A DNA stretch of 64,000 nucleotides from a virus. The DNA lies in IMG/VR virus record IMGVR_UViG_3300045988_054550, positions 7,976 through 71,975 of that record; one strand, given 5' to 3'. The notes beneath the pieces were generated by a model that was not told the DNA's origin, searched no databases, and saw nothing but the letters and a program-made list of their open reading frames with translations. Positions 7,293 to 62,255 of this stretch are shown here, one piece after another. Position 1 is the stretch's first letter; every line of letters starts with the position of its first letter. Both the position numbers and the translations under genes were made by a program.

Positions 7293-8030
7293 TCAAAACG
7301 GGCATAAATTCAAATCAACATCCAGTCCCGGTCTTGCGATCTGCACCAGAACATCATCTCCTGCAACGTCCTGTATCTCTTTCTGCATCACTTCCGGATT
7401 CCCCCATCCCTCTGACAGGTGACATAGCGTTATAGTCCTGAGCGAAGCGGTCTTGTTCACTCGAATAATCTCTTTTACAGTAGATAAACTGCTGTGCCCC
7501 CGGATGGAGTGTTCAAACTTAAACGAATCCTGTTCTGGCGATTCGTCCAGATGATTGCATTCTATAAGGAAGTGATTTATTCTCATGTTCTTAAATGTGA
7601 ACGGCAAATATGAGAAGTCTGTCGCATATATCAGTCGCCCGCATTCCTCATGCGATATCAGGTACGCGAAGTTTGGTGTATTGTCGTGTGGGACGTAGAA
7701 CGGCGTTACCCGGAACGAACCTATGTCTTTTGGTTTCTTTTCTGGCAATCCGATCATCAGCTCCCCAGAGATTGCGTTTACGCTCTCAACCGTCTCGTCA
7801 TTGGTGTAAATCTGAATACCGGACTGCATAAGATTCTGAAATGATTTCAGGTGATCTCCGTGTCCATGGGTCAGCAGACAGCCCGAAACATCTGATATCC
7901 TATAAGAAATTCCTTTTAAAATCTCTGAATACTTGCATCCACAATCCAAAAGCAAGATTTCGCCGGATTCGGTCTTGAGCGTATAGCAGTTTCCGAGTTG
8001 ACTGCCTGTGTTTATCACTCTCATGAACAT
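7293..8030 (-). CDS. metallo-beta-lactamase fold hydrolase/nuclease
   Basis: LLTHGHGDHL matches the HxHxDH motif. Sits next to the recombination genes. Confidence 0.75.
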   Translation of the reverse strand: MFMRVINTGSQLGNCYTLKTESGEILLLDCGCKYSEILKGISYRISDVSGCLLTHGHGDHLKSFQNLMQSGIQIYTNDETVESVNAISGELMIGLPEKKPKDIGSFRVTPFYVPHDNTPNFAYLISHEECGRLIYATDFSYLPFTFKNMRINHFLIECNHLDESPEQDSFKFEHSIRGHSSLSTVKEIIRVNKTASLRTITLCHLSEGWGNPEVMQKEIQDVAGDDVLVQIARPGLDVDLNLCPF

Positions 8031-9629: not shown

Positions 9630-10727
9630 TCACATTTCCTCCTGTTTCATAAAATCTGGGATGCTTGGCTCCTGTCCTGCTGCCGAAACTGGTTCTTTCT
9701 CGGCAGTCTTTACGAATTCTGCGACCGTTGGCTGCTTAGGTTGTTCTTCGATTGCTGCTGGTTCATCTCGGATAAATTCTTCTGCATTGGCGTTCTGCTC
9801 GATTTCTTCCTGCACTTCTCTGTATGTGGCATCCATCATGTTGTATTCGTAAGCCTGCACCGGATTATCCCATCTTTTAGGAATGGACTTCATAATGTTG
9901 TTTCGCATCTTACGAATAATCATTGATTCTCTTGACTGTGTTTCATAATAAGACGGTGAAATATATGGTCTTAATTCTTCACAATCAATGATTGCTTCCA
10001 GTTCTCCGATCTCAGCAACCTTTTTCATGATTTCTTTTTTCTTTGCTTCAATTTGGGCTTTCTGCGCATCTGTAGCTTTATATCTATCTGCACAAATTCC
10101 AAAAGTTTCATTCTGGAGATTATTCTTGATGTGCGCTGCAAGATTTTTCAGTACATCTGCTCTTTCACATGAAAGATATTCAATATGTCCGTCCTTATAC
10201 TGAATCGGATATACGATACGAACTACTTTGCCTACGCCAGATTCTTCCCATTCTGGTGGTGTAATTTCCACGCCTTTATGTCTTGGCGGTGTATACTTAT
10301 CACCCTCTCTAACCTTCCAGTACGGGAACACTTTAGCCACATTGACACCATATCTGCTTACAAGAGCGTCATTTCCATCGCCCTCAATCGCAAATTCGAT
10401 TTTCTTCTCCCACTGTGCCGGTTTTCCTTTTCCTGCTACGTTTACGTTTCTGATCTGGAAATAGCATTCTCTTGGCTGTGCATTTGCGTTCAGTTTCAAT
10501 GCTGCTACTTTCTGCATAACAGACTTTAAGTTTGATGTATTTACCGATTTCATATCAGTTCCACTTTCGTGAATCATCTGATAAATAGCCGCCATTGCTG
10601 ACACTACGCATTCTTTTGAATAAGAGTCGAACTCCATTCCTCTTGTTTCTAAATCTTCCTTCATCAGGTCTACATAACTGTTTGTCCATACTGAAAGAGT
10701 GGTGTTAAATGTTTTTGTTTCTGCCAT
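9630..10727 (-). CDS. recT: RecT-family single-strand annealing protein
   Basis: 365 aa with a RecT-like core (ALKLNANAQPRECYFQIRN...IEGDGNDALVSRYG). Flanked by an ATPase and a nuclease. Confidence 0.65.
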   Translation of the reverse strand: MAETKTFNTTLSVWTNSYVDLMKEDLETRGMEFDSYSKECVVSAMAAIYQMIHESGTDMKSVNTSNLKSVMQKVAALKLNANAQPRECYFQIRNVNVAGKGKPAQWEKKIEFAIEGDGNDALVSRYGVNVAKVFPYWKVREGDKYTPPRHKGVEITPPEWEESGVGKVVRIVYPIQYKDGHIEYLSCERADVLKNLAAHIKNNLQNETFGICADRYKATDAQKAQIEAKKKEIMKKVAEIGELEAIIDCEELRPYISPSYYETQSRESMIIRKMRNNIMKSIPKRWDNPVQAYEYNMMDATYREVQEEIEQNANAEEFIRDEPAAIEEQPKQPTVAEFVKTAEKEPVSAAGQEPSIPDFMKQEEM

Positions 10728-10745
10728 AACAATTCTCCTTTTCTA

Positions 10746-10982
10746 TTAATCGCAATAAGTTCTATTGCAAAACGGGCATCCTGTAATTAATTCCTTTGAT
10801 GCTCTCTCAACAGAAATTCCATTCCATTCTTTTCCACTTCTTGTTCGTCCTTTTTCGGAATAAATATTCTGCCCACAATCAAAGCATTTTCCACTACGCG
10901 GTGCAAAATGCGGATAACCTTTTTCCATGCAATATTTTTCCTGTGCTTTTGTTGCTTTTGAAATGTCATAAGTTTCTGCCAT
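10746..10982 (-). CDS. small zinc-binding protein
   Basis: 78 aa with CFDCGQ...CPFC. Confidence 0.5.
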   Translation of the reverse strand: MAETYDISKATKAQEKYCMEKGYPHFAPRSGKCFDCGQNIYSEKGRTRSGKEWNGISVERASKELITGCPFCNRTYCD

Positions 10983-11007
10983 TTTTATTCTCCTTTTCTG
11001 ATAATTA

Positions 11008-13035
11008 TTAAACTTCCGTTACTGTCATATCTCCCTCAGCAACTTTCAGGAAAATCAACTGTGCATCTGCCTTAATACCTGCCAGGCTGCTATTGTCCAG
11101 TTCTGCTGCACAGTCTATGAATATCGGATAACTCACGCCGTAAAACTTCTGCAAACCATCCATGATGGCAATTTTTCCTTTCATCATGAGGGCTGTATTG
11201 GCATTCCCGATCAGCTTTTTCCAGTTACCGTCCTTGTCCTGCACGTGCCAGATACAAGCGTCTACGACCTCACCGTTTTTCTGTGTATCGAACAGTTTCA
11301 CTTTAACTCCGTCAAAATACCGGTTTACTGCATCTTCAAGAGCTGTATTCTTCGCCATGCTCAGGGATTTTAGTTCATCCAGAATCATCTGCGCATCAGC
11401 TTTATTTTGCGCGTACTGTTTCTGGCTTTCCTGAAGCTTCTCGATCTGTTCGTCGATTCGGATGTTATTATTGGCTTCTCCGATTCTCTGATTTACTGCT
11501 GCCAATTCCTGTTTCTTGCCGGATAACTGCTCTGAAAGCTGTTTCTTTGCTTCTTCGCCATCGTCCAGAGAATTAAGCTCCTGTTCTTTCTCTTTGATTG
11601 TTGTAAGAATCTGCTGATATTCGGCGTTTTCTGAGAAATCTGGCTCTTTCGGTATAGCTTCCAGATTCTTGTTTTCTGCGTCCAGAGAAGTCTTAATCTG
11701 CTCTAATTCCCCTGCAAGTTTGGAAATCTCAGATGTGAGAGTTTCTTCCTGCTTATGTGCTTCTTTCATTCCGGCAGACGCTTTGTTGCCAGCCTGAATA
11801 ACTTCATCAAGTTTACGCTTCTTGTCCTGCTCCCAATCTTCCTGAGCTTTCAACTGCTGATTGATTCTTTCCTGTTTCTTCTGCTCGAATCTGCTCTTTA
11901 ACTGCTCAATCTGCTCTGATGGAAGATTCTGGCCGCAAGTCGGGCAAATGGTATCTGCATCATTGAATGTCTCAGATTCAATATTTTCCAGAACTGTGTC
12001 GTCCCATTCTGTGTCCTTGATTTTGGGATATTGCGTTCTGGCGTTCTGCAATTTTTCAAGAAGATCTTTTTTCTGTGCTCTCAGGTACTCCAATGCAGAA
12101 GCCTTTCTGTTCAACTCTGATGTTTTGATATTCCTGTCTAATTCAAGAGTGTTAACTTTATTGCAAACCGATGATTTCTGCTCTAACAAGTCCGCTTTAG
12201 CCTTTGAGTCTATCTCTAACAGTTTGGTTCTTAATCCTGCCAGTTCCGTTTTAATCTCTCCGGCTTTCTCGTTCCCTGCCTGTGCAATCTGCTTTTCGAG
12301 GTCAGAAATCTGTTCCTGCAAGGCGTTCTTCTGCAATTCCAGTTCGGCAACATCAGCGTCAACCTTTGACTGCTCCATGCCGATAATCTGGTTTGGAATG
12401 GCTTTCAACTGTTCCTCTGCCTTTTTCAGCGTTGCGTTGTTCATGGATTTGATTTCGTCTGCCTTATAAGTTTCCAGAAGTGGCACCAGTTCGGCACAGT
12501 CTGGAACTGTCTTGGCAATCTCTAAATCCGTTTTCCCGGCACCATCTGACATGGCGAACAGAATCTTTCTGGCATCTGCATCTTTCAAGTCTGTGAAGAT
12601 TTCCATATGCGACAGCATAAGAAAATTATCAAAGTCAAATCCTCGCTCTTTTAAATCAGCTTTAAAATCTCTTTCGGCTTTTGGAACGCCATTGTTTTCG
12701 TATTTGTTAGATAATGCAACCTTGCCCGGTTTTCCGTCCTTTGGTTTACTTTCTGTACGTTTCTGGAACTTCGCTACGCTTACCGGCTTTCCGTCAATTA
12801 CAATGTCAATATCGACTCTTGGCAGGCATTCTCTGCCATCATCCGGCCTTATATCTGGGTTGCTATTTAAACTGTAGTCCTTATCACAGAACACCCACAT
12901 AAAAGCGTCTGCCAGTGTGGTTTTCCCACATCCGTTCTTGCCGGAAACGATTGTTCTGTGTCCGAACCCTATTTTCTTTTCTGACTGACCTTTAAAATCG
13001 GTCAATCTAATCTCTCTTACTTCGATTTTCTTCAT
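11008..13035 (-). CDS. SbcC/Rad50-like AAA ATPase with long coiled coil
   Basis: Walker A GKNGCGKTT and a CPTCGQ zinc-hook-like motif in mid coiled coil. Start refined to MKKIEVREIRL. Confidence 0.7.
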   Translation of the reverse strand: MKKIEVREIRLTDFKGQSEKKIGFGHRTIVSGKNGCGKTTLADAFMWVFCDKDYSLNSNPDIRPDDGRECLPRVDIDIVIDGKPVSVAKFQKRTESKPKDGKPGKVALSNKYENNGVPKAERDFKADLKERGFDFDNFLMLSHMEIFTDLKDADARKILFAMSDGAGKTDLEIAKTVPDCAELVPLLETYKADEIKSMNNATLKKAEEQLKAIPNQIIGMEQSKVDADVAELELQKNALQEQISDLEKQIAQAGNEKAGEIKTELAGLRTKLLEIDSKAKADLLEQKSSVCNKVNTLELDRNIKTSELNRKASALEYLRAQKKDLLEKLQNARTQYPKIKDTEWDDTVLENIESETFNDADTICPTCGQNLPSEQIEQLKSRFEQKKQERINQQLKAQEDWEQDKKRKLDEVIQAGNKASAGMKEAHKQEETLTSEISKLAGELEQIKTSLDAENKNLEAIPKEPDFSENAEYQQILTTIKEKEQELNSLDDGEEAKKQLSEQLSGKKQELAAVNQRIGEANNNIRIDEQIEKLQESQKQYAQNKADAQMILDELKSLSMAKNTALEDAVNRYFDGVKVKLFDTQKNGEVVDACIWHVQDKDGNWKKLIGNANTALMMKGKIAIMDGLQKFYGVSYPIFIDCAAELDNSSLAGIKADAQLIFLKVAEGDMTVTEV

Positions 13036-50538: not shown

Positions 50539-51285
50539 TTATTCTAACCAATCATTATCTAAGTAATAAAATCCAAAAACAACCGTTCCTGTCAAGATAG
50601 CCCATAAAACACGAAATAAAATTAACCATACTCCGGTTTCTAAGAGTTTTACTGTTTCTTCGATATTTTGGTTGTTGTAAAATTTAGTCTTATCACTGAT
50701 TGTTTTGTCTTTTAGTGACGTAAAGATTGTTCCTTTGTACTTTGTCCCAACCCCATAGTACTTGTATCTGATATAACTTGACTCTTTTACCGTATCAATG
50801 TACTCATCATCTGGAAGAACGATTTTATTGCTTTTAAAATCAATTCCGCAGAAATTTATTTTCTTAGCTGTCTTGCTTTCTTTTCCTGCATAATCCCAAG
50901 TCCAATAAGTTTCAGTGGTGTAATAAGTACTTTTTCCAGATTTATGTGCTACTCTTCTGGTGTGCATGGTATATTTTTCTTTAACCTTCTTAACATACAT
51001 GTATTTGCCATTAATTTCTGGGTAAGTAACTGTATCTACAGCCTTTAATTTGCCATACACAAAAGCATTACCGACGTTAGTCTCCATTCCATACTGAAAC
51101 AAATCTGTGGATTGAATTTTTACAGCTTTATTGTATTTATCATTTTGGTTTATCTGCCAGTCAGATATTTTGGAAGAAATCAATGTTCCTATAAGAAGCA
51201 TTACTGCAATGATTGAAATGCTAGCAATAATTTCTCTTTTCGTAATCTCGAAGTTTCCAAAATCCCAACCTCTATCCGTCTTCAT
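50539..51285 (-). CDS. membrane protein with N- and C-terminal TM segments (LemA partner)
   Basis: 248 aa. TM IIASISIIAVMLLIGTLI and C-terminal VWLILFRVLWAILTGTVVFGFYY. Confidence 0.5.
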   Translation of the reverse strand: MKTDRGWDFGNFEITKREIIASISIIAVMLLIGTLISSKISDWQINQNDKYNKAVKIQSTDLFQYGMETNVGNAFVYGKLKAVDTVTYPEINGKYMYVKKVKEKYTMHTRRVAHKSGKSTYYTTETYWTWDYAGKESKTAKKINFCGIDFKSNKIVLPDDEYIDTVKESSYIRYKYYGVGTKYKGTIFTSLKDKTISDKTKFYNNQNIEETVKLLETGVWLILFRVLWAILTGTVVFGFYYLDNDWLE

Positions 51286-51288
51286 ATC

Positions 51289-51837
51289 TTATTCCTCAAA
51301 CAGGTTCTGTGGTGCCGATTCTGGTGCATCAAAATCAAGCAGTTTAAAGTCTTTTTTATCATATCCAAGCATATTCAAGAACGATCTCTGAGGAAATGCT
51401 TTCACATATTTTCGATATGCTTTGACTGATTTATTGTAATTCTCCCTGTATTCTGCAATAAGATTCTCTGTCAAGGAAAGTTCTGTCATAAGTTGCTTAT
51501 AGTTATCAGAAGATTTCAACTCTGGGTACGCTTCACTCACAGCTGAAATTGCAGTAGTAACATTCTCAATATCATTCGAACCAGAAGTCCTTCCGGAAAC
51601 AATAGCTTTTAATGTTTCACTTTCATGCTTATCGTATTGCTTCACACAATCTGCAAGATTATATACCAGATCAACTCTACGTTTTTCCTGTATCTTGATA
51701 TCTGAAGATGCTGATTCCACCTGCTCTTCCAATGATATCGCATGATTCTGGAAACTCTGCACTCCAAAGATTCCAAATATTACAATTGCTATAACTCCTA
51801 CAAGTGAAATTAATAATGCTTTCCATGTGCTTTTCAT
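51289..51837 (-). CDS. lemA: LemA family protein
   Basis: 182 aa. N-terminal TM plus the LemA pattern (IKIQEKRRVDLVYNLADCVKQY...YPELKSSDNYKQLMTELSLTENLIAEYRENYN). Confidence 0.8.
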   Translation of the reverse strand: MKSTWKALLISLVGVIAIVIFGIFGVQSFQNHAISLEEQVESASSDIKIQEKRRVDLVYNLADCVKQYDKHESETLKAIVSGRTSGSNDIENVTTAISAVSEAYPELKSSDNYKQLMTELSLTENLIAEYRENYNKSVKAYRKYVKAFPQRSFLNMLGYDKKDFKLLDFDAPESAPQNLFEE

Positions 51838-51840
51838 GAT

Positions 51841-52483
51841 TTATTCTCCTTTCGCTGGCCATTCAAAGCCAAAATCTGAACGTTTGATTTTGCATTGTGG
51901 GATTCCATCTTTCCAGAATATAATTCCTTCCATATTGCGATTTCTCAAATATTCTCGGATGCCATCGTAAGTTCTAGGGACTGAGATTTCCAGTTTGCCA
52001 TGTGGAATAAGCGTATCAATTCCAAAATCGTACGGATTCCCATTGAAATGTTTTCCAACAGCTTCGTATGTGCCGCACATAGTCGGTTCCACAATATTTT
52101 CAGTACCATCCAGTGTAGTTACATTTACCTTTACCTTATTATCTTCAAGATATCTGTAATAAGCTTTCGCAAACCATTTATCTTCAGGTGCCGGATTTCC
52201 TAAATCAACTTTCACCCAGCATGGAAAATGTCCCGTAACTGGGTCTGGTTTATCCTGACACGAGATTGATCCAAGTGGGACTTTACGCCCCTTTTTGACA
52301 TTCGCATCATATCTTTTAAAAAGGTTTCCATCGGCAATCATGCAACAAGAACCATCCCATTTCACTGTGGCAGTTCCTTTTCATTCAAGAACCCACTCCA
52401 TGCCTTCTGTGACTTCCGGAAGTGTTCTTTTAACTCTATGTCCCTCAAATTCTCGTTTGAATAGTGTTGGTATTTTTTTTCAT
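51841..52483 (-). pseudogene. ATP-dependent ligase-like nucleotidyltransferase with A8 frameshift at start and in-frame TGA (52381-52383)
   Basis: Reading KKIPTLFKREFEGHRVKRTLPEVTEGMEWVLE-TGA-KGTATVKWDGSCC (KxDG motif I), GTYEAVG..GNPY, EGIIFW..CKIKRSDFG. The ATG at 52481-52483 is out of frame by one A of an A8 run. Confidence 0.65.
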
Positions 52484-52485
52484 AA

Positions 52486-52980
52486 TCATTCTCCTTCCAA
52501 TACTTTAATAATAATTTCTTCAATTGCGATAAAATCAGAACACGACATATTGGTTTTATTAGAACGAAAATATATATCAATTTCTTTCAGTAACAATTTA
52601 TGTATCCTGTGTTTCTGGTCATCTGTAAGATAATCTTTTTCGATTGGTTTCTGGTTGTATATATCAGACCATTCTGATGCAGTTTGTTCTATTGTGATTC
52701 CTCGTAATGCATTATTAATTATTAACATCCATTCTGAATAAGGCAGTTCTTCTTTGCATTCTAGTGTTATTTTAGGCGGTACGTCTTCTTCTGCGTTTAT
52801 GAGATCAAATGGAATTATTTTTGAACCAATTTTAATAAGGCATGTATCCCAATTACATATTTTTTGAGATTGGAGTTTAATATATGTAACTTCTTTTTCT
52901 AATGGATCAATTTCAATCCGCGCTTTTACTTCTTCGCCTGTTTCTATAATTTGTACAGGTACATATTCTGTTAAAGTCAT
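52486..52980 (-). CDS. hypothetical protein
   Basis: 164 aa ORF. Confidence 0.5.
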   Translation of the reverse strand: MTLTEYVPVQIIETGEEVKARIEIDPLEKEVTYIKLQSQKICNWDTCLIKIGSKIIPFDLINAEEDVPPKITLECKEELPYSEWMLIINNALRGITIEQTASEWSDIYNQKPIEKDYLTDDQKHRIHKLLLKEIDIYFRSNKTNMSCSDFIAIEEIIIKVLEGE

Positions 52981-53162
52981 GCATTCACCTCAATCTGGAA
53001 TCCCTAACTGTTTATAAGTAAATATGGCTGTATATTTTTTACCACATTTGTAGCATGTTTCCGTAATAGTGCAAGTCTTTTCTTTATCGTCACATTTTGA
53101 TTCTGTATCTGAACTTTTGAATTTACATCCTCCCGTTAGAAAGCATTTGATTCTTTTTTTAT

Positions 53163-53396
53163 TCATACATTCACCATGAACTCTTTCTTACAGTTGCTTC
53201 CCTTACATTTGTACGGCATCCGATGAATTTTTGTAGTAGGAAGTATTTTCAACGCTCTCTTTCCACAATAAGGGCACGATACCCATTTCTCGCCGTTTAC
53301 TGTTTTGATTTGTGCTGTTCCGTCCCACGGCTCAGGTATATTCATGTATTCAGAGAAATCTACGCCTTCTGATTCAAGTGCTGTTTTAATGCTCAT
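53163..53396 (-). CDS. Com-like zinc-finger protein
   Basis: 77 aa. CPYCGKRALKI...YKCKGSNCKKEFMV resembles Mu Com-type fingers. Confidence 0.4.
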   Translation of the reverse strand: MSIKTALESEGVDFSEYMNIPEPWDGTAQIKTVNGEKWVSCPYCGKRALKILPTTKIHRMPYKCKGSNCKKEFMVNV

Positions 53397-53577
53397 TTAA
53401 TTCTTGTCTCCTTTGAAAAAATCTGTTGTAATCTGCGATTGAAAATTTACCTAAGGTTCCATAAATTACTTTTCCTTCAGATTTTGGAATCTTTGACAAC
53501 ATTTCTTTTGAAATTGGTGCTGAACTTTTTACATCTAAATCATCACAGATAAGGTATTTATCGTAATCACGTTCCAT
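53386..53577 (-). CDS. hypothetical protein
   Basis: 63 aa ORF. Confidence 0.4.
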   Translation of the reverse strand: MERDYDKYLICDDLDVKSSAPISKEMLSKIPKSEGKVIYGTLGKFSIADYNRFFQRRQELNEH

Positions 53578-53579
53578 AC

Positions 53580-53864
53580 TTATTTACCATTGTCCTTTCT
53601 GATCAATTCCAAAATCGTCAAATAGTTATCTCCGATATAATCGGAATATTCTGGATTTTTATGAAATAGAACAGTGTTTCCTGCCAGAAGCACATGTTTG
53701 TCTGGATAAAATCTGGTCGGGATGTTCATTCGATGGCATTCTCCCTCAAGATTATATACAGTATCAAAAAATCCAATATCGGTACCTGAATAATTAATTC
53801 TCATAAGCGAATATGTCCCTATCTGGTCGAACTTAAAATGATTTTGTTCTTGCACTGCGGGCAA
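53580..53864 (-). CDS. hypothetical protein (true start probably internal)
   Basis: 94 aa ORF overlapping the upstream gene. Confidence 0.4.
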   Translation of the reverse strand: MPAVQEQNHFKFDQIGTYSLMRINYSGTDIGFFDTVYNLEGECHRMNIPTRFYPDKHVLLAGNTVLFHKNPEYSDYIGDNYLTILELIRKDNGK

Positions 53865-54028
53865 ATAATGTATTTTTTCTTGTATCCGAATCCAGATGGC
53901 ATATTTGTAGCAAAATGATTCTCTATATTTTCATCTTTCACATCTTCGGACTCGTCATAGCTCAATACTGCACCGCATTTGTTACAAGTTGCTTCTTTTA
54001 ATGTACCAGGTTTCAAAATCTTAATCAT
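53819..54028 (-). CDS. small zinc-ribbon protein
   Basis: 69 aa. CNKCG...CPQCK. Confidence 0.5.
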   Translation of the reverse strand: MIKILKPGTLKEATCNKCGAVLSYDESEDVKDENIENHFATNMPSGFGYKKKYIICPQCKNKIILSSTR

Positions 54029-54047
54029 GGCAATCCTCCTTTATCAA

Positions 54048-54755
54048 TCAAGCTGTCTTCTCGAACAACTCAAGAATAAACTCTCGTCCAATCTGTGTGA
54101 TTCGCCTGTGATAGATTACTCTTCCAGAATCCAGAACTTCCTGTTTGATTTCTTCGTACCCACAATTGCTATACTGCGAAAACATCACCCATGTACCATT
54201 GACCTGATACTGAATCTTTTTATCTGCCAGAATCCGGTTTAGCTGCATTGCTGATTTCAGTCCCAGTTCCTTAGCAATCTCAGTAATGGTATAAGTTTTG
54301 TTGACGTGCATCAGAATAGCGTTCTTTCTTTCAGCTTCCACTCTGGCGGCACGTTCCTCTTTTAATTTGGTTAGAAGTTCAATTCCAAAGTCGGGATTGT
54401 TGAGAATGTTATCAATTACATTGTCCGTAGCATATATACCATGCTTGCGGATAGTCTTCAGAATCTCTTTAACTTCTTTCTTAAACTGTTTTGCGATTGG
54501 CTTTCTTGACTGCATCAGGACTTCATAAAGTCCATTCTCGGTAAGCATATTCATTTGCCTGTTCTGACCTGCCCTAAGAATTGTTGAGATCAGCTTTTCA
54601 TCATCGTCAATGCCCCTAAGCATTTCCGTTACGTTGCTATGTTCAATCCAATCGGCTACATCATTGGCCACAAACAACGGTTCTTCTGCTGTTCCGTAAA
54701 CGCGAAACTGTTTTCCCAATACTTCCTGCTCATTCAATACTTTCAGTTCGTTCAT
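54048..54755 (-). CDS. BRO-N / KilAC-type phage antirepressor
   Basis: Start at MNELKVLNEQ. FRVYGTAEEPLFVANDVADWI...MLTENGLYEVLMQSRKPIAKQFKK is the Bro-N pattern. Confidence 0.7.
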   Translation of the reverse strand: MNELKVLNEQEVLGKQFRVYGTAEEPLFVANDVADWIEHSNVTEMLRGIDDDEKLISTILRAGQNRQMNMLTENGLYEVLMQSRKPIAKQFKKEVKEILKTIRKHGIYATDNVIDNILNNPDFGIELLTKLKEERAARVEAERKNAILMHVNKTYTITEIAKELGLKSAMQLNRILADKKIQYQVNGTWVMFSQYSNCGYEEIKQEVLDSGRVIYHRRITQIGREFILELFEKTA

Positions 54756-54913
54756 TTCTCTCTTTTCTCCCTGTGCTTCATCTGGCATCCGATCATCTTT
54801 GCTACATTTTCACGTTCTTGTTTTATTCCATGTCCCTGACGGAATAACTCACATTCAAGGATATTTCCGCATTTAGAACATTCGTCTTTAATTTCTTTTC
54901 CTGCTATTTGCAT
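54752..54913 (-). CDS. small Cys-containing protein (53 aa)
   Basis: Hand-translated MQIAGKEIKDECSKCGNILECE... Overlaps both neighbours at the start and stop. Confidence 0.35.
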   Translation of the reverse strand: MQIAGKEIKDECSKCGNILECELFRQGHGIKQERENVAKMIGCQMKHREKREK

Positions 54914-55179
54914 TCCCATCCATCCTGTACCATTCTAGGTTTGTATATTTTTTCAGTATACCCTTCGCCGTTGCATAAGTCGCAAGTGACTTCTTTTTCT
55001 ACGTAATCATCACAACATTCCCAGTATTGCGCACGATTTACTCTTTTGATAATAGTTCCACTTCCGCCGCACTTCGGACATCTGTGAATTTTGTTTCCTT
55101 GCATTAGTTTCACAAGGTCATCAAGAGTCGTTTCTCCACCATATGTATTTCTCAAACATATTGCCTCATAAATTTTCAT
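54904..55179 (-). CDS. DnaJ-type zinc-finger protein
   Basis: Start at MKIYEA after GGGAGGA. CPKCGGSG...CDLCNGEG repeats. Confidence 0.5.
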   Translation of the reverse strand: MKIYEAICLRNTYGGETTLDDLVKLMQGNKIHRCPKCGGSGTIIKRVNRAQYWECCDDYVEKEVTCDLCNGEGYTEKIYKPRMVQDGWECK

Positions 55180-55315
55180 TTTCTGCGTCCTCCCAAAATT
55201 CGCAAACACAATCTGGTTCCGTAAAATTAGCGCAGTGTTCACTGTCGCCGTTGAAACATACCCATGTAAAATCGTCATGTTTCTTACATGTTTTACAATA
55301 CTTTTCTTTTTGCAT
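55166..55315 (-). CDS. small Cys-rich protein (49 aa)
   Basis: MQKEKYCKTCKKHDDFTWVCFNGDSEHC... First gene after the RNA island. Confidence 0.35.
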   Translation of the reverse strand: MQKEKYCKTCKKHDDFTWVCFNGDSEHCANFTEPDCVCEFWEDAENENL

Positions 55316-55339
55316 AATTAACACCTCAATTTAAAAAAG

Positions 55340-55389
55340 TCCAGTGTGCCGACTTGAACGGCATAAATCTCCCAACGAGAAACACTGGA
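55340..55389 (-). ncRNA. tRNA-like minihelix / branched terminator (acceptor-like 8 bp stem + D-like hairpin + T-arm, no anticodon arm) followed by a U6 run
   Basis: Minus strand: TCCAGTGT TT CTC-GTTGG-GAG ATTTAT GCCG-TTCAAGT-CGGC ACACTGGA C TTTTTT. Confidence 0.5.
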
Positions 55390-55438
55390 ACCGTACGAAA
55401 TAAGAGAAAAAGATTCCAATGATTGCAGTTCATTGGAA

Positions 55439-55575
55439 TTGAAAAGGGAAGATTCGAACTTCCATGTACATCCCATGTCCAAAGACACATACTCACCCAT
55501 TAAGATGTACTATCCTCTGCGTCTGCCTTTCTATCGTATCGGGTTCATCACCGTCAATAGTTCCGCCACTTTTCA
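55439..55575 (-). ncRNA. oversized tRNA-like RNA (137 nt): 7 bp acceptor, type-II-like D-arm, canonical T-arm, expanded centre
   Basis: 5' TGAAAAG TG GCG-GAACTATTGA-CGG ... GGAAG-TTCGAAT-CTTCC CTTTTCA A 3'. The candidate anticodon hairpin TATGT-GTCTTTGG-ACATG has an 8 nt loop. Confidence 0.45.
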
Positions 55576-55607
55576 ATCAGAGCATTATCACTCAATGCAT
55601 CAAACGT

Positions 55608-55722
55608 CCATATAGGAGGGGATTTCCACCCTTTTACTCTCATGCCGCCGGCTAAGGTCACCTAAGTTGTGGGTTTAAACCTATGCTACCACAATAGCGT
55701 CTACGTATTCCGCCACTATATG
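55608..55722 (-). ncRNA. oversized tRNA-Leu-like RNA (115 nt): perfect 7 bp acceptor, Leu-type D-arm, aberrant T-loop
   Basis: 5' CATATAG TG GCG-GAATACGTAGA-CGC ... TTGTGG-(16 nt loop with GGTTTAAACC)-CCACAA ... GGG-TGGAAAT-CCC ..CTATATG G 3'. Starts 3 nt after tRNA-Thr. Confidence 0.45.
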
Positions 55723-55725
55723 GAA

Positions 55726-55797
55726 TCGGAAAGGCAGGAATCGAACCTGCGACACATAGCTTACAATGCCATTGCTCTACCACTGAGCTACATTCCA
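55726..55797 (-). tRNA. tRNA-Thr (anticodon UGU)
   Basis: Hand-folded cloverleaf: TGGAATG TA GCTC-AGTGGTA-GAGC A ATGGC-ATTGTAA-GCTAT GTGTC GCAGG-TTCGATT-CCTGC CTTTCCG A. One U-U mismatch and a terminal U-G in the acceptor. Confidence 0.75.
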
Positions 55798-56088
55798 TAC
55801 CGCCTGTAACGGACAGTTCTCTAAAAAGAAACTGGGTTGATTCCCACATCACATGCTTTCGGACCGGATGAAAATATCCAGATAAACATTAACCTTTCCA
55901 TCGTAAAACACATGAACTAGATGGTTCTTTTAGAATTGCCGACTATCACTTCTCACGGACCGTGGTCTCATCTCTCTAAAAAGTTTTTTACGCAAACGCC
56001 TAGTGAGTTGTACGTTTACGCTCATGCGTAAATCCGCCTGAGGCATAGACCGCCTGTATACAAACAGCTTAATTCTAAGCGGATTAAA

Positions 56089-56160
56089 GTGGAACGCCCG
56101 GAATCGAACCGGAGACTAGGTTACTCGTCCCTATCAGCTTTCCACTAGCTGCACATTCCA
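56089..56160 (-). tRNA. tRNA-like gene with non-canonical anticodon arm (loop ACGAGUA, C33; G-A at stem end)
   Basis: TGGAATG TG CAGC-TAGTGGAAA-GCTG A TAGGG-ACGAGTA-ACCTA GTC TCCGG-TTCGATT-CCGGG CGTTCCA C. Acceptor, D and T arms are good. The anticodon loop violates U33 and the variable loop is only 3 nt. Confidence 0.45.
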
Positions 56161-56491
56161 CATAACCCGGAAACTCCGGGTTAGCAATATGTTTATCGTG
56201 TTATGCTTTCCACTAGGCTGTTTTATGCCGTGCCAGCCCCACGGAGTTGTTTTCGGATTTGGATATTAATGTCTTTGTGTATAACAACAAAACCTTTTAT
56301 ATGTCTCTTGAAAACTTCCTGTCCTCAATGCGCGCTTATTGACGACAATTTAACTCGGAGACTGTGTAGAACGGGGAATTATCTTCATCGAACAGGCTGT
56401 GCCGTTACACACCTTTCATAAAAATAATCCACATACATTCATTCAACAGTTTTTTCTGTCCACAAAACGGATAGACAGCATATGGAAGAAA

Positions 56492-56564
56492 TGGAAACTA
56501 CAGGACTTGAACCTGTGACTTGTCGGTTATGAGCCGACCGTTCTGCCAACTGAACTAAGTCTCC
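56492..56564 (-). tRNA. tRNA-Met (CAU; elongator type, or Ile2 if lysidine-modified)
   Basis: GGAGACT TA GTTC-AGTTGGCA-GAAC G GTCGG-CTCATAA-CCGAC AAGTC ACAGG-TTCAAGT-CCTGT AGTTTCC A. Confidence 0.85.
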
Positions 56565-56756
56565 TAAGCAGAGGGTTATTGCAGTTCAAGAGTAACTTCC
56601 TCTGCTGTTGCGATTCTTGCCCTCTCAGTCGCAACAAAGGGTCCGCTGCTCCACAAAATGTGGAAACCATCCGGGACGTTTGAAGCCCCTTTATTCATCC
56701 CCTGATGGGATAGATGGTATTTCAGAGGAACTATATCATGCCAATGATATAGCTAA

Positions 56757-56828
56757 CTAGGCTAGTGGGATTCGAACCCACGAATTCAGCAGTCAAAGTG
56801 CTGAGCCTTACCGCTTGGCGATAGCCCA
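56757..56828 (-). tRNA. tRNA-Gln (UUG)
   Basis: TGGGCTA TC GCCA-AGCGGTA-AGGC T CAGCA-CTTTGAC-TGCTG AATTC GTGGG-TTCGAAT-CCCAC TAGCCTA G. Confidence 0.85.
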
Positions 56829-57129: not shown

Positions 57130-57642
57130 TTATTCTGCAAAAATCCAATCATCTGCTAACATATCCGCCTGAGATGCAAGCCATCCCATCTGTACGCCGG
57201 ATGTTTCGACAAAAGCAATGGCTTTATTTCCAATCGCATCATGTTCGCAATTTACGATTTTATTATCAGCAGTTTTATACGAAATCCTGGTAGCAAGCTG
57301 AATGTACTGTTTCTTTCCGTTCCATCCTTTTCTTGCAACCTTGAGTCCACGTTTCATATATTTAATTGCATCTCCAAAAGAAAACTCTGATTCGCCACCG
57401 AGCACCGGGCAGTTTGTTTCGTCTGCAATAATCCATTCATCAGACTGCATATTCATAGTGGTATATTCGACCCTCTGAGTTTTCCTGATGTCAAGTAAGT
57501 CGCCCTGAGTATCGCTATCCTGTGGGCGGCACTGAATCATAATTGTTTCTTTTTCTGCATCCCAATACCAATATCCGCCCCATGATGGAAGTTTTACCTT
57601 CGCTCCCTGTTTCATAAGTTTAAATGCTTCTGAAAATTTCAT
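57130..57642 (-). CDS. tandem DUF2829 (Tad2-like) protein
   Basis: Two repeats: MKFSEAFKLMKQGAKVKLPSWGGYWYW...SDEWII and FSFGDAIKYMKRGLKVARKGWNGKKQYIQL...GWLASQADMLADDWIF. Confidence 0.7.
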   Translation of the reverse strand: MKFSEAFKLMKQGAKVKLPSWGGYWYWDAEKETIMIQCRPQDSDTQGDLLDIRKTQRVEYTTMNMQSDEWIIADETNCPVLGGESEFSFGDAIKYMKRGLKVARKGWNGKKQYIQLATRISYKTADNKIVNCEHDAIGNKAIAFVETSGVQMGWLASQADMLADDWIFAE

Positions 57643-57829
57643 TATTTGTGTCCTCCTTATAATCTAAAAATCACAACTGCATTAACTGCGAAACATATTT
57701 CCATTAATATAAATATTGCTGAAGCTATTGGATTGCTTTTCTTTTCGACTTCGTCCTGTGATATAAGGAATGCCAAGACCAATGTGAAAAATGTAATATC
57801 TAACATGGCTGCTACGAATTTTGCTAAAA

Positions 57830-58210
57830 TCATTCTCTTTGTTCCTCTCCGATCATGAAATCAAGAATCTTACCGGCAGTTTCTTCTTCTGGCTCGAATG
57901 GTAAACCGCAGGTACAATACTTCTCAATTGCTGTTTTAAGGCTTGCTTTGAAGCCATTGTAAACTTCTCCGTGTGTCAGAAGTTCGTGCCTTAAAATGGC
58001 TACTGCGTCGGTTAGTTTCTGTTTTGAAAGGTCAATCTTCACATCTCCATTCAGATCTTCATACGCCGTCGCGTTCCCCAAAAGAACTTTGACTTTATTT
58101 GCTTTAAATATCACGTATCCTTGAATTTTTCCAGGGTCTGGTTTTTCTCTTGTGAAAATCGCTGTTTCATCCATTACATATGCGTAATATACTGGGTCAA
58201 TACTGTTCAT
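57830..58210 (-). CDS. hypothetical protein
   Basis: 126 aa ORF. Confidence 0.5.
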   Translation of the reverse strand: MNSIDPVYYAYVMDETAIFTREKPDPGKIQGYVIFKANKVKVLLGNATAYEDLNGDVKIDLSKQKLTDAVAILRHELLTHGEVYNGFKASLKTAIEKYCTCGLPFEPEEETAGKILDFMIGEEQRE

Positions 58211-58517
58211 TCTTCAAGTCCTCCATTTCTTTCACGCTAATCCCGACTATCCCGGCGCTATCCTTGCTGTCTGTGGCTTTAAAGTGTGCTTTAGGGTGTT
58301 GCGGGTACATGAACTCAAACATAAGGTAATTTGCCGCATCCACAAGGTACTCTGTATTCCCAGTGGAATTATATTTTTCAATGCACCGTTCCATTGTAGG
58401 AAGCGCCTGTACGTTTCCGGTTTTAAAATTCTTCCTGGCAGGACCGTATTTATGATAGCTTACCTCGACTCGATTCTTACGAAGTTCATCAAAGCGTTCA
58501 CTGTATTCTTCTGACAT
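58197..58517 (-). CDS. possible MazG-like / dNTP pyrophosphohydrolase-type all-alpha protein
   Basis: 106 aa. HKYGPARKNF...GNTEYLVDAANYLMFEF resembles phage dATP/dGTP diphosphohydrolase N-domains. Recognition is weak. Confidence 0.3.
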   Translation of the reverse strand: MSEEYSERFDELRKNRVEVSYHKYGPARKNFKTGNVQALPTMERCIEKYNSTGNTEYLVDAANYLMFEFMYPQHPKAHFKATDSKDSAGIVGISVKEMEDLKNEQY

Positions 58518-61724: not shown

Positions 61725-62255
61725 TTAACGCATAGCCTGTTTTAAGAAAAATTCTAATTCTTCTTCGTAGTATTCTTTACAATATAATTTTACTTTTGCT
61801 TTGTACTTTTCTTTTACTTCAAAAAAATCGTTAAATTGAGAATTTGCTCGTTTTATATTTCCAAGCTCGTAAGATTCCACTTTGTGATTTACTTTGTTGT
61901 ATCCTTTTTCTGGATTCGTAGAATCAAACATTTTAATCGCCATGTATTCAAAATGTCTTAAATTATGGTCCTTTAAATACTTTGGCAATAGTTCAACCCT
62001 TGTTAGAGGATATGCAATAAATGAATTACCACTATCAAAATCTTTTTGAAAAGTACTTGATGAATGTTTTCCCTTTTTTAGACTATATAAATGCGCTTTC
62101 AATCTCTTACATATGTTTCTGGTTGAACCAATATATACTTTTTGATTGTCCATATTTACAATTATATAGACACCTGGGAAATCAGAATTTTCATTAATCC
62201 TAAATTGTTCTGTTTTCACTGTAACCACTTCCTTTCTATGGTTACAGTATATCAT
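61725..62255 (-). CDS. GIY-YIG nuclease
   Basis: FPGVYIIVNMDNQKVYIGSTRNICKRLKAH is a canonical GIY-(10)-YIG motif. Confidence 0.75.
   Translation of the reverse strand: MIYCNHRKEVVTVKTEQFRINENSDFPGVYIIVNMDNQKVYIGSTRNICKRLKAHLYSLKKGKHSSSTFQKDFDSGNSFIAYPLTRVELLPKYLKDHNLRHFEYMAIKMFDSTNPEKGYNKVNHKVESYELGNIKRANSQFNDFFEVKEKYKAKVKLYCKEYYEEELEFFLKQAMR

Follow-up and report, generated by a model that had tools for sequence, protein, structure and literature searches.

The window, the 64,000-nt stretch of viral DNA analysed here, belongs to a tailed phage, with genes for a large terminase, portal, major head protein, tape-measure protein and endolysin-like protein all encoded on the minus strand. The gene of interest lies at positions 57130–57642 of the minus strand and is complete, running from an ATG start through 170 codons to a stop, as had been claimed from the letters and as given by both the open reading frame list and the translation. 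A strong Shine-Dalgarno sequence, AAGGAGG (57652–57658, minus strand), was read from the upstream sequence 9 nt before the ATG. The product, referred to here as the tandem protein, is divided into a short, acidic (pI 4.8) N-type domain with a predicted, divergent Tad2-like fold (aa 1–76; 57415–57642), an inter-domain linker with the conserved motif N-[CT]-P-x-L-G-G (aa 77–86; 57385–57414) and a canonical, basic (pI 9.1) C-type Tad2 domain (aa 87–170; 57133–57384), all on the minus strand. Neither a signal peptide nor a transmembrane segment was found in the protein, and a promoter and terminator scan around the gene returned counts no higher than the shuffle expectation. Comparison with 30 orthologues gave dN/dS values of 0.03–0.35 for both halves, with synonymous sites near saturation; the gene is real, conserved and under purifying selection in both domains. 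The N domain is the more conserved half among distant representatives, and the generalization that this is always so was dropped given that among close relatives dN is often lower for the C domain.

Directly downstream on the same strand are genes for tRNA-Gln, tRNA-Met and tRNA-Thr, placing the tandem gene immediately upstream of a tRNA island as first described, followed in order by genes for a zinc-ribbon protein, an Ant/Bro antirepressor, an RLIG1-like protein and LemA. An Rfam scan of the tRNA region returned these three tRNAs and nothing else. The tRNAs (Gln-TTG, Met-CAT and Thr-TGT), the RLIG1-like gene (51841–52365) and the LemA gene (51289–51837) fall within a minus-strand stretch at 50539–56828, and in sister phages the same stretch carries a 400-aa RtcB RNA ligase (contigs L008–L010, about 10140–12307). 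Together, the tRNAs and the RLIG1-like, LemA and RtcB proteins could represent a tRNA supply and repair module directed against anticodon nucleases.

The tandem gene and the genes that follow it form part of an accessory stretch, which upstream of the tandem gene encodes, in transcription order, a GIY-YIG endonuclease, a weak gp3-like packaging protein, small open reading frames and a 58-aa hydrophobic open reading frame. Several small open reading frames between the gp3-like and tandem genes had no family matches. The GIY-YIG homing-endonuclease-like gene (61725–62255, minus strand) is present in some sister phages and absent from others. Two overlapping open reading frames of 126 and 106 aa directly upstream (57830–58517, minus strand), neither with a Pfam or PHROG match, accompany the tandem gene in all four sister contigs examined (L007–L010). 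The 58-aa open reading frame (57657–57833, minus strand) contains two hydrophobic stretches, possibly membrane-spanning, and ends 14 nt upstream of the tandem gene with its stop codon overlapping the ribosome binding site; it was called as a gene in a single sister contig (L010) and had no Pfam or PHROG match. Homologues of DUF6275, holin or endolysin adjoining the tandem gene are absent from the window. At a distance (7293–8030, minus strand) the window encodes a 245-aa metallo-beta-lactamase-fold protein with 47% full-length identity to a protein annotated as PF23023 (anti-Pycsar Apyc1) and encoded, in a related locus (L011), three genes from a relative of the tandem gene; in a Pfam scan the 245-aa protein matched only Lactamase_B and Lactamase_B_2, and its Apyc1 membership is putative. 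The accessory stretch fits an accessory or counter-defence region without proving one. The anti-defence neighbourhood proposed by the sequence-only reading is therefore plausible for the window but does not extend to the family, the relatives being found mostly in lysis cassettes or head-assembly modules.

Assignment of the protein to DUF2829 had been made by eye, with an HMM search and a structural comparison to Tad2 suggested as checks, and both bore it out. The whole 170-aa protein matched PF11195 (Tad2-like, formerly DUF2829) in two stretches with E=3.4e-25 and 88.8 bits, against a gathering cut-off of 25 bits, and no other Pfam family, PF13876 and PF21825 included, was matched at E<=1. 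The two halves contribute unequally. Alone, the C half scored 75.3 bits over profile positions 2–71 of 73, and the N half 21.6 bits, below the cut-off, over positions 1–50 only. When the halves were compared with each other by BLASTP only the first 23 residues were aligned (43% identity, E=6e-5), so profile–profile comparison and structure prediction were needed to judge the repeat. Half-domain profiles built from 29 family members aligned end to end in hhalign (1–74 of N to 2–85 of C) with a probability of 95.2% and E=2.9e-8. Against PDB sequences the N-domain profile gave weak matches (E about 0.1) confined to the first helix–strand motif of Tad2 proteins; sequence is thus insufficient to settle the fold of this domain. 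For the N half on its own, AlphaFold2 gave a confident model (pLDDT 90.9, pTM 0.81) that was compared with the PDB using Foldseek, and the sole credible match was SPO1 Tad2 (8smf_G, E=6.6e-3, TM 0.63/0.62), with the next at E=0.29. This predicted fold match is of moderate strength.

The full-length AlphaFold2 model (pLDDT 89.3, pTM 0.73) gave 24 PDB matches at E<=1e-3, all of them Tad2 structures, and its matches among the viral folds of BFVD were Tad2-like domain proteins. The tandem protein is thereby predicted to have the Tad2 fold, which is defined by an N-terminal helix, an antiparallel beta-sheet and a C-terminal short helix plus strand. Sequence searches of solved structures with phmmer likewise returned exclusively Tad2/AcrIIA7 proteins, with the C domain matching AcrIIA7/HgmTad2, SPO1 Tad2, SptTad2 and ModTad2 (E=2e-11 to 5e-8). 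By profile match and predicted structure, the tandem protein is a member of the Tad2/DUF2829 family with a Tad2 fold in both halves. The two DUF2829-type repeats originally reported thus correspond to two Tad2-fold domains by hhalign and AlphaFold, but they are not like copies, the N half remaining below the cut-off. Both repeats carry the start motif A.K.MK.G.KV followed five residues on by W.G; the proposed end motif is literal in the second repeat (QADMLADDWI), and in the first (TMNMQSDEWII) is limited to a D-[DE]-W-I tail.

Stand-alone counterparts of both domains were identified. Clostridium perfringens phage vB_CpeS-CP51 gp006 (CP51_006, 68 aa) and C. tetani phage phiCT19406A gp36 (CT19406A_36, 66 aa) matched the N-domain profile with E=1e-33 and E=1e-29, respectively, and contain the WxGYW and DIR[ED]T motifs of aa 1–76. 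At 27.8 and 31.1 bits across the full profile, both exceed the PF11195 cut-off. They represent the same domain as aa 1–76, differing in that they are single-domain and uncharacterised. Proteins of about 90–100 aa that consist essentially of the C-type domain alone were present among cluster representatives (e.g. P0191, 91 aa). Given that N-type and C-type modules occur independently, the window protein is a fusion of two distinct Tad2-fold subtypes, rather than the result of a recent internal duplication.

The fusion is common. Homologues of the tandem protein numbered 7,741 in a 90%-clustered database, and among the top 120 nearly all were 164–178 aa in length (a few were 208–217 aa) and matched the query over its full length; identity among full-length homologues ranged from 93% down to about 33%. 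The architecture has already been clustered as PHROG 1048, which matched the full length of the protein (E=3e-60), and probably also as PHROG 872, whose 172-position profile matched in two stretches; the function of both is listed as unknown. A scan of one genome per species yielded 93 relatives, of which 80 loci were kept. All 80 are from gut-associated Clostridia, including Blautia (87% and 81% identity), many Lachnospiraceae, Oscillospiraceae, Ruminococcus bromii and Anaerovoracaceae, and prophages carrying the gene occur in 80 or more species of gut Clostridia. Blautia sp. Marseille-P3087 (NZ_LT635539) is one such carrier. The exact window protein was present in 228 blocks of an assembly collection, on contigs of about 73–139 kb, which indicates that the host phage is a widespread gut phage. 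Among the isolated phages of INPHARED a search for DNA near-identical to the window returned only a 95-bp match, and the window phage is thus without a close sequenced relative in that collection. Cultured examples of the family include gp19 of Ruminococcus gnavus phage phiRg507T2_3 (169 aa, tandem) and Dorea phage DO134P1.

To place the putative pocket of the tandem protein, residues were aligned to solved Tad2 structures. SPO1 Tad2 (gp34.65; 8SME, 8SMF and 8SMG) is an 89-aa single-domain homotetramer in which both protomers supply W25, N26, W73 and D79 as gcADPR contacts, with S76 and T78 contributing as well. The gcADPR residues of HgmTad2 are W21, N22, G23, W87, L88, S90, T92 and D93, and binding is lost in W21A/N22A and S90A/T92A/D93A mutants. 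In the C domain of the tandem protein the corresponding pocket residues are W107, N108, G109, W154, L155, S157 and D160, with the SPO1 tetrad of W25, N26, W73 and D79 represented by W107, N108, W154 and D160. The sole change from the known gcADPR-contact set is at the equivalent of SPO1 T78, which is an alanine (Ala159). SPO1 Tad2 and the C domain therefore share the HMM, sequence similarity, predicted fold and the W, N, W, S and D contacts to gcADPR, and both proteins are phage-encoded, small, soluble and without enzymatic motifs. The tandem protein differs in the divergent Tad2-like domain added at its N terminus and in the length of its central insertion (about 40 aa, compared with about 24 aa in SPO1 Tad2). 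No other part of the family varies as much as this insertion, which lies at about aa 110–150 and separates the WNG motif from W154. N108 is present in the window protein and every close relative examined, but among 24 divergent tandem representatives only 11 retain it, and the ligand therefore probably varies across the tandem family, a point against the sponge reading given below.

The N domain lacks half of the canonical pocket. Its residues at the tetrad positions are W21, G22, Y60 and N64, that is, the canonical Asn is replaced by Gly22, Trp by Tyr60 and Asp by Asn64. A different set of residues is conserved in this domain, consisting of W21, G23, Y24, W25, W27, D51-I52-R53, T55, Y60, T61, N64, S67, D68 and W70. 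The linker is also conserved, with N77, P79, L81, G82 and G83 kept in 17–22 of 24 divergent representatives, and was modelled with pLDDT above 90.

Given the canonical pocket kept in its C domain and the near-identical proteins found in varied phage slots, the tandem protein is, we think with moderate confidence, a cytoplasmic sponge for immune signals, most likely the ADP-ribose-derived signals of Thoeris. Known ligands of the Tad2 family are gcADPR, His-ADPR, N7-cADPR, cGG/cGAMP and cUMP/cCMP. Sequestration of gcADPR, as proposed from the sequence, thus invokes a known ligand whose contacts are kept in the C domain, although it is one of several that the family binds.

Sequestration of a non-Thoeris signal, such as CBASS cyclic dinucleotides, Pycsar cUMP/cCMP or housekeeping c-di-GMP/c-di-AMP, was considered, with the ligand bound either by the N-type domain or at the second type of Tad2 pocket, which the variable insertion forms. 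HgmTad2 and SptTad2 bind cGG/cGAMP through an insertion of 35–41 residues, in MoTad2 an interface of this kind accommodates cUMP, and the highly variable insertion of the window C domain is of similar size. Furthermore, an Apyc1-like gene is present in the window phage, and one relative (P0096) lies three genes from an Apyc1 (PF23023) homologue. The cGG contacts of HgmTad2 are nevertheless not conserved: R31, P32, D34 and L36, the four that can be aligned, correspond to A117, T118, I120 and Y122 of the C domain, while the further contacts K46, S47, F70 and N85 fall in an unalignable stretch. With none of the four mappable contacts kept and the ADPR-type residues conserved instead, a non-Thoeris sponge appears unlikely.

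The closest solved relatives of the C domain, HgmTad2/AcrIIA7 (8KBI–8KBM and 9KZR) and SptTad2 (8WJD; E=2e-11 to 3e-8), share its insertion length and its W-N-G and W-L-A-S-Q-x-D motifs. DUF2829 proteins have also been reported as anti-CRISPRs that act via tracrRNA binding, and the best solved-structure matches of the tandem protein are AcrIIA7 entries (9kzr, E=2e-11; 8kbi, E=6e-11). The AcrIIA7 tetramer reportedly binds tracrRNA, and a positively charged groove in the core of an analogous oligomer of the tandem protein, for which the C domain is suitably basic (pI 9.1), would similarly capture tracrRNA and keep the Cas9 ribonucleoprotein from assembling. Such an activity is considered extremely improbable given that HgmTad2/AcrIIA7 and other Tad2 homologues showed no anti-Cas9 activity in an independent study, that the similarity is limited to the shared Tad2 core, including the gcADPR-pocket motifs, and that the acidic N domain would disfavour RNA binding. 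The proteins also differ at their N termini, where AcrIIA7 of P. dorei carries a helical head domain and the tandem protein its N-terminal Tad2-like domain.

The positions of the tandem gene across the family fall into recurrent slots. Among the 80 loci, 29 have a lysis-module context, 25 lie between MuF/minor-capsid and scaffold genes and 26 are elsewhere or unclassified. Relatives in the lysis-cassette slot (L001–L006, e.g. L001:9702–11564; L097:1889–4015) are located between holin and endolysin, often with start and stop codons that overlap; the holins are of the SPP1-type, Hol44 and holin_4_1 families, and the endolysins of the Amidase_2+SH3, GH25 and PG_binding_1 types. The head-module slot is located between a head-morphogenesis gene (MuF or minor capsid protein 2) and a scaffold gene, and is filled by the stand-alone N-type genes in CP51 and phiCT19406A (L098:2501–2707; L099:2501–2701). 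A gene for DUF6275 (PF19791), a protein of about 90 aa and unknown function (e.g. L001:10522–10797 and L011:4473–4736), occurs within about 1.3 kb of the tandem gene in 17 of the 80 loci, on the same strand, on either side and mostly adjacent. DUF6275 could be a partner in function or simply another accessory gene, and might belong to the same counter-defence unit.

Most relatives are co-directional members of late operons (holin–X–endolysin or MuF–X–scaffold), which speaks against a sponge. Early expression is usually expected for a sponge. An accessory role in a late module, for example as a lysis-timing factor or head-assembly helper in which the Tad2 fold serves as an oligomerisation or ligand scaffold, would account for this same-strand placement beside holins and/or endolysins (29 of 80 loci) or in the MuF/minor-capsid–scaffold slot (25 of 80). 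It would also suit P0022 (82% identical), which is always located between an SPP1-type holin and DUF6275/endolysin with start and stop codons overlapping the holin and the downstream gene, as well as gp19 of phiRg507T2_3, which is flanked by holin and endolysin, and the stand-alone N-type genes of the C. perfringens and C. tetani phages between head-morphogenesis and scaffold genes. Proteins at least 80% identical nevertheless occupy at least four unrelated slots, including the non-structural region of the window and, for P0084, a position just upstream of the small terminase, a pattern more in keeping with an accessory gene than with a module component. Additionally, the canonical ligand pocket is conserved, a signal peptide and transmembrane segments are lacking, and the endolysin-like gene of the window is about 35 kb from the tandem gene. 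A late-module role was on these grounds judged very unlikely, and the tandem gene as an obligatory part of the lysis cassette was rejected as a general rule (29 of 80 loci). With near-identical proteins in unrelated slots of different phages, and from its phage and prophage distribution, the tandem gene behaves like a mobile accessory gene, or ‘moron’.

Returning to the protein as a sponge for ADP-ribose-derived signals, what we infer for ligand binding, ligand identity, oligomeric state, the role of the N domain and the defence system targeted is as follows. In the solved tetramers of Tad2, two protomers have to contribute the W/N/W/D residues of every ADPR-type pocket, so a canonical pocket in the tandem protein would require an interface between C domains of an oligomer. 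Two C domains from different chains would meet at this interface as in the solved homotetramers, and the C–C' pair would form a Trp/Asn/Trp/Asp pocket enclosing an ADP-ribose-derived TIR signal (1''-3' gcADPR/3'cADPR or a relative). Sequestration of the signal would keep the Thoeris effector off and allow the phage to replicate.

The N domain is the less conventional part of this arrangement, as an acidic domain without the canonical pocket Asn and Asp is atypical for a nucleotide pocket and itself counts against a sponge. Two roles can be envisaged. The domain may form an oligomer of its own and confer a second binding specificity, in the manner of the Acb4-Tad2 and Sequestin-Tad2 fusions, or it may pack against the C domain such that a dimer of tandem proteins resembles a Tad2 tetramer whose pockets are non-equivalent. 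A fixed packing of N against C is slightly favoured by the opposite charges of the domains, the ordered and conserved linker and the pTM of 0.73 for the full-length model. That the N domain contributes to an asymmetric hybrid pocket with the C domain, forming a single-chain ‘pseudo-tetramer’, or else constitutes a separate class of sponge with its own ligand, is a real but lesser possibility. The pocket of the N domain would be lined by W21, Y24, W25, W27, R53, Y60 and N64, and in either case the tandem protein would capture a signal or a pair of signals beyond the reach of homotetrameric Tad2 proteins.

Fusion of sponge domains is already known as a principle. The only Tad2 fusions described in the literature searched are Tad2-Acb4 and Tad2-PF21825 (Sequestin), and the Acb4-Tad2 fusion of Pasteurella phage Pm86 blocks both Thoeris and CBASS. 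Such fusion is an accepted strategy for stopping two signals with a single protein. Like these, the tandem protein combines a Tad2 domain and a second small module in one polypeptide. Its partner, however, is a second Tad2-fold domain and not Acb4 (PF13876) or PF21825, making it analogous to the fused sponges rather than a member of them. A Tad2-fold partner also makes hetero-packing between the halves possible, which it is not in the known Acb4 and PF21825 fusions. The Tad2 proteins described in the literature searched are single-domain homotetramers, as the sequence-only reading had stated, and no description or test of a Tad2–Tad2 tandem, of the N-type subfamily or of DUF6275 was found there. 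Its further claim that a fused tandem is a distinct architecture holds in that no paper on such a protein was found, but the architecture is far from rare, with 7,741 homologues and an existing PHROG (1048), and the sequence family is already known from PHROGs and annotated as DUF2829/Tad2-like.

Tad2 sponges are one main route by which phages silence signalling immunity (Thoeris, CBASS and Pycsar), and the homotetramers described in the literature have symmetric pockets. A covalent pair of different Tad2-fold modules, abundant in prophages of Clostridia that dominate the human gut, such as Blautia, Dorea, R. gnavus and Ruminococcus bromii, could show how duplication or fusion breaks the symmetry of the pocket or adds a second specificity, and could indicate the immune signals of importance in gut Firmicutes, a group whose defence biology has seen little testing. 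Were the tandem protein an ordinary gcADPR sponge, the advance would be incremental, adding one more Tad2 subfamily. A cultured system is at hand in R. gnavus ATCC 29149 and phage phiRg507T2_3, with gp19 as the gene.

Other combinations of the two modules exist. Within the top 150 representatives of clusters formed at 50% identity, the N–C architecture was found in at least 52, alongside three C–C tandems, two three-domain proteins and one 481-aa multi-repeat protein. Canonical C–C tandems are exemplified by P0158 and P0255. The three-domain proteins, P0135 (242 aa) and P0147 (228 aa), form C–N–C and N–N–C arrays, and the multi-repeat protein (P0235), as read by eye, consists of an N-type domain followed by four further DUF2829-like repeats. 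In P0244 (425 aa), about 310 uncharacterised residues precede the N–C unit.
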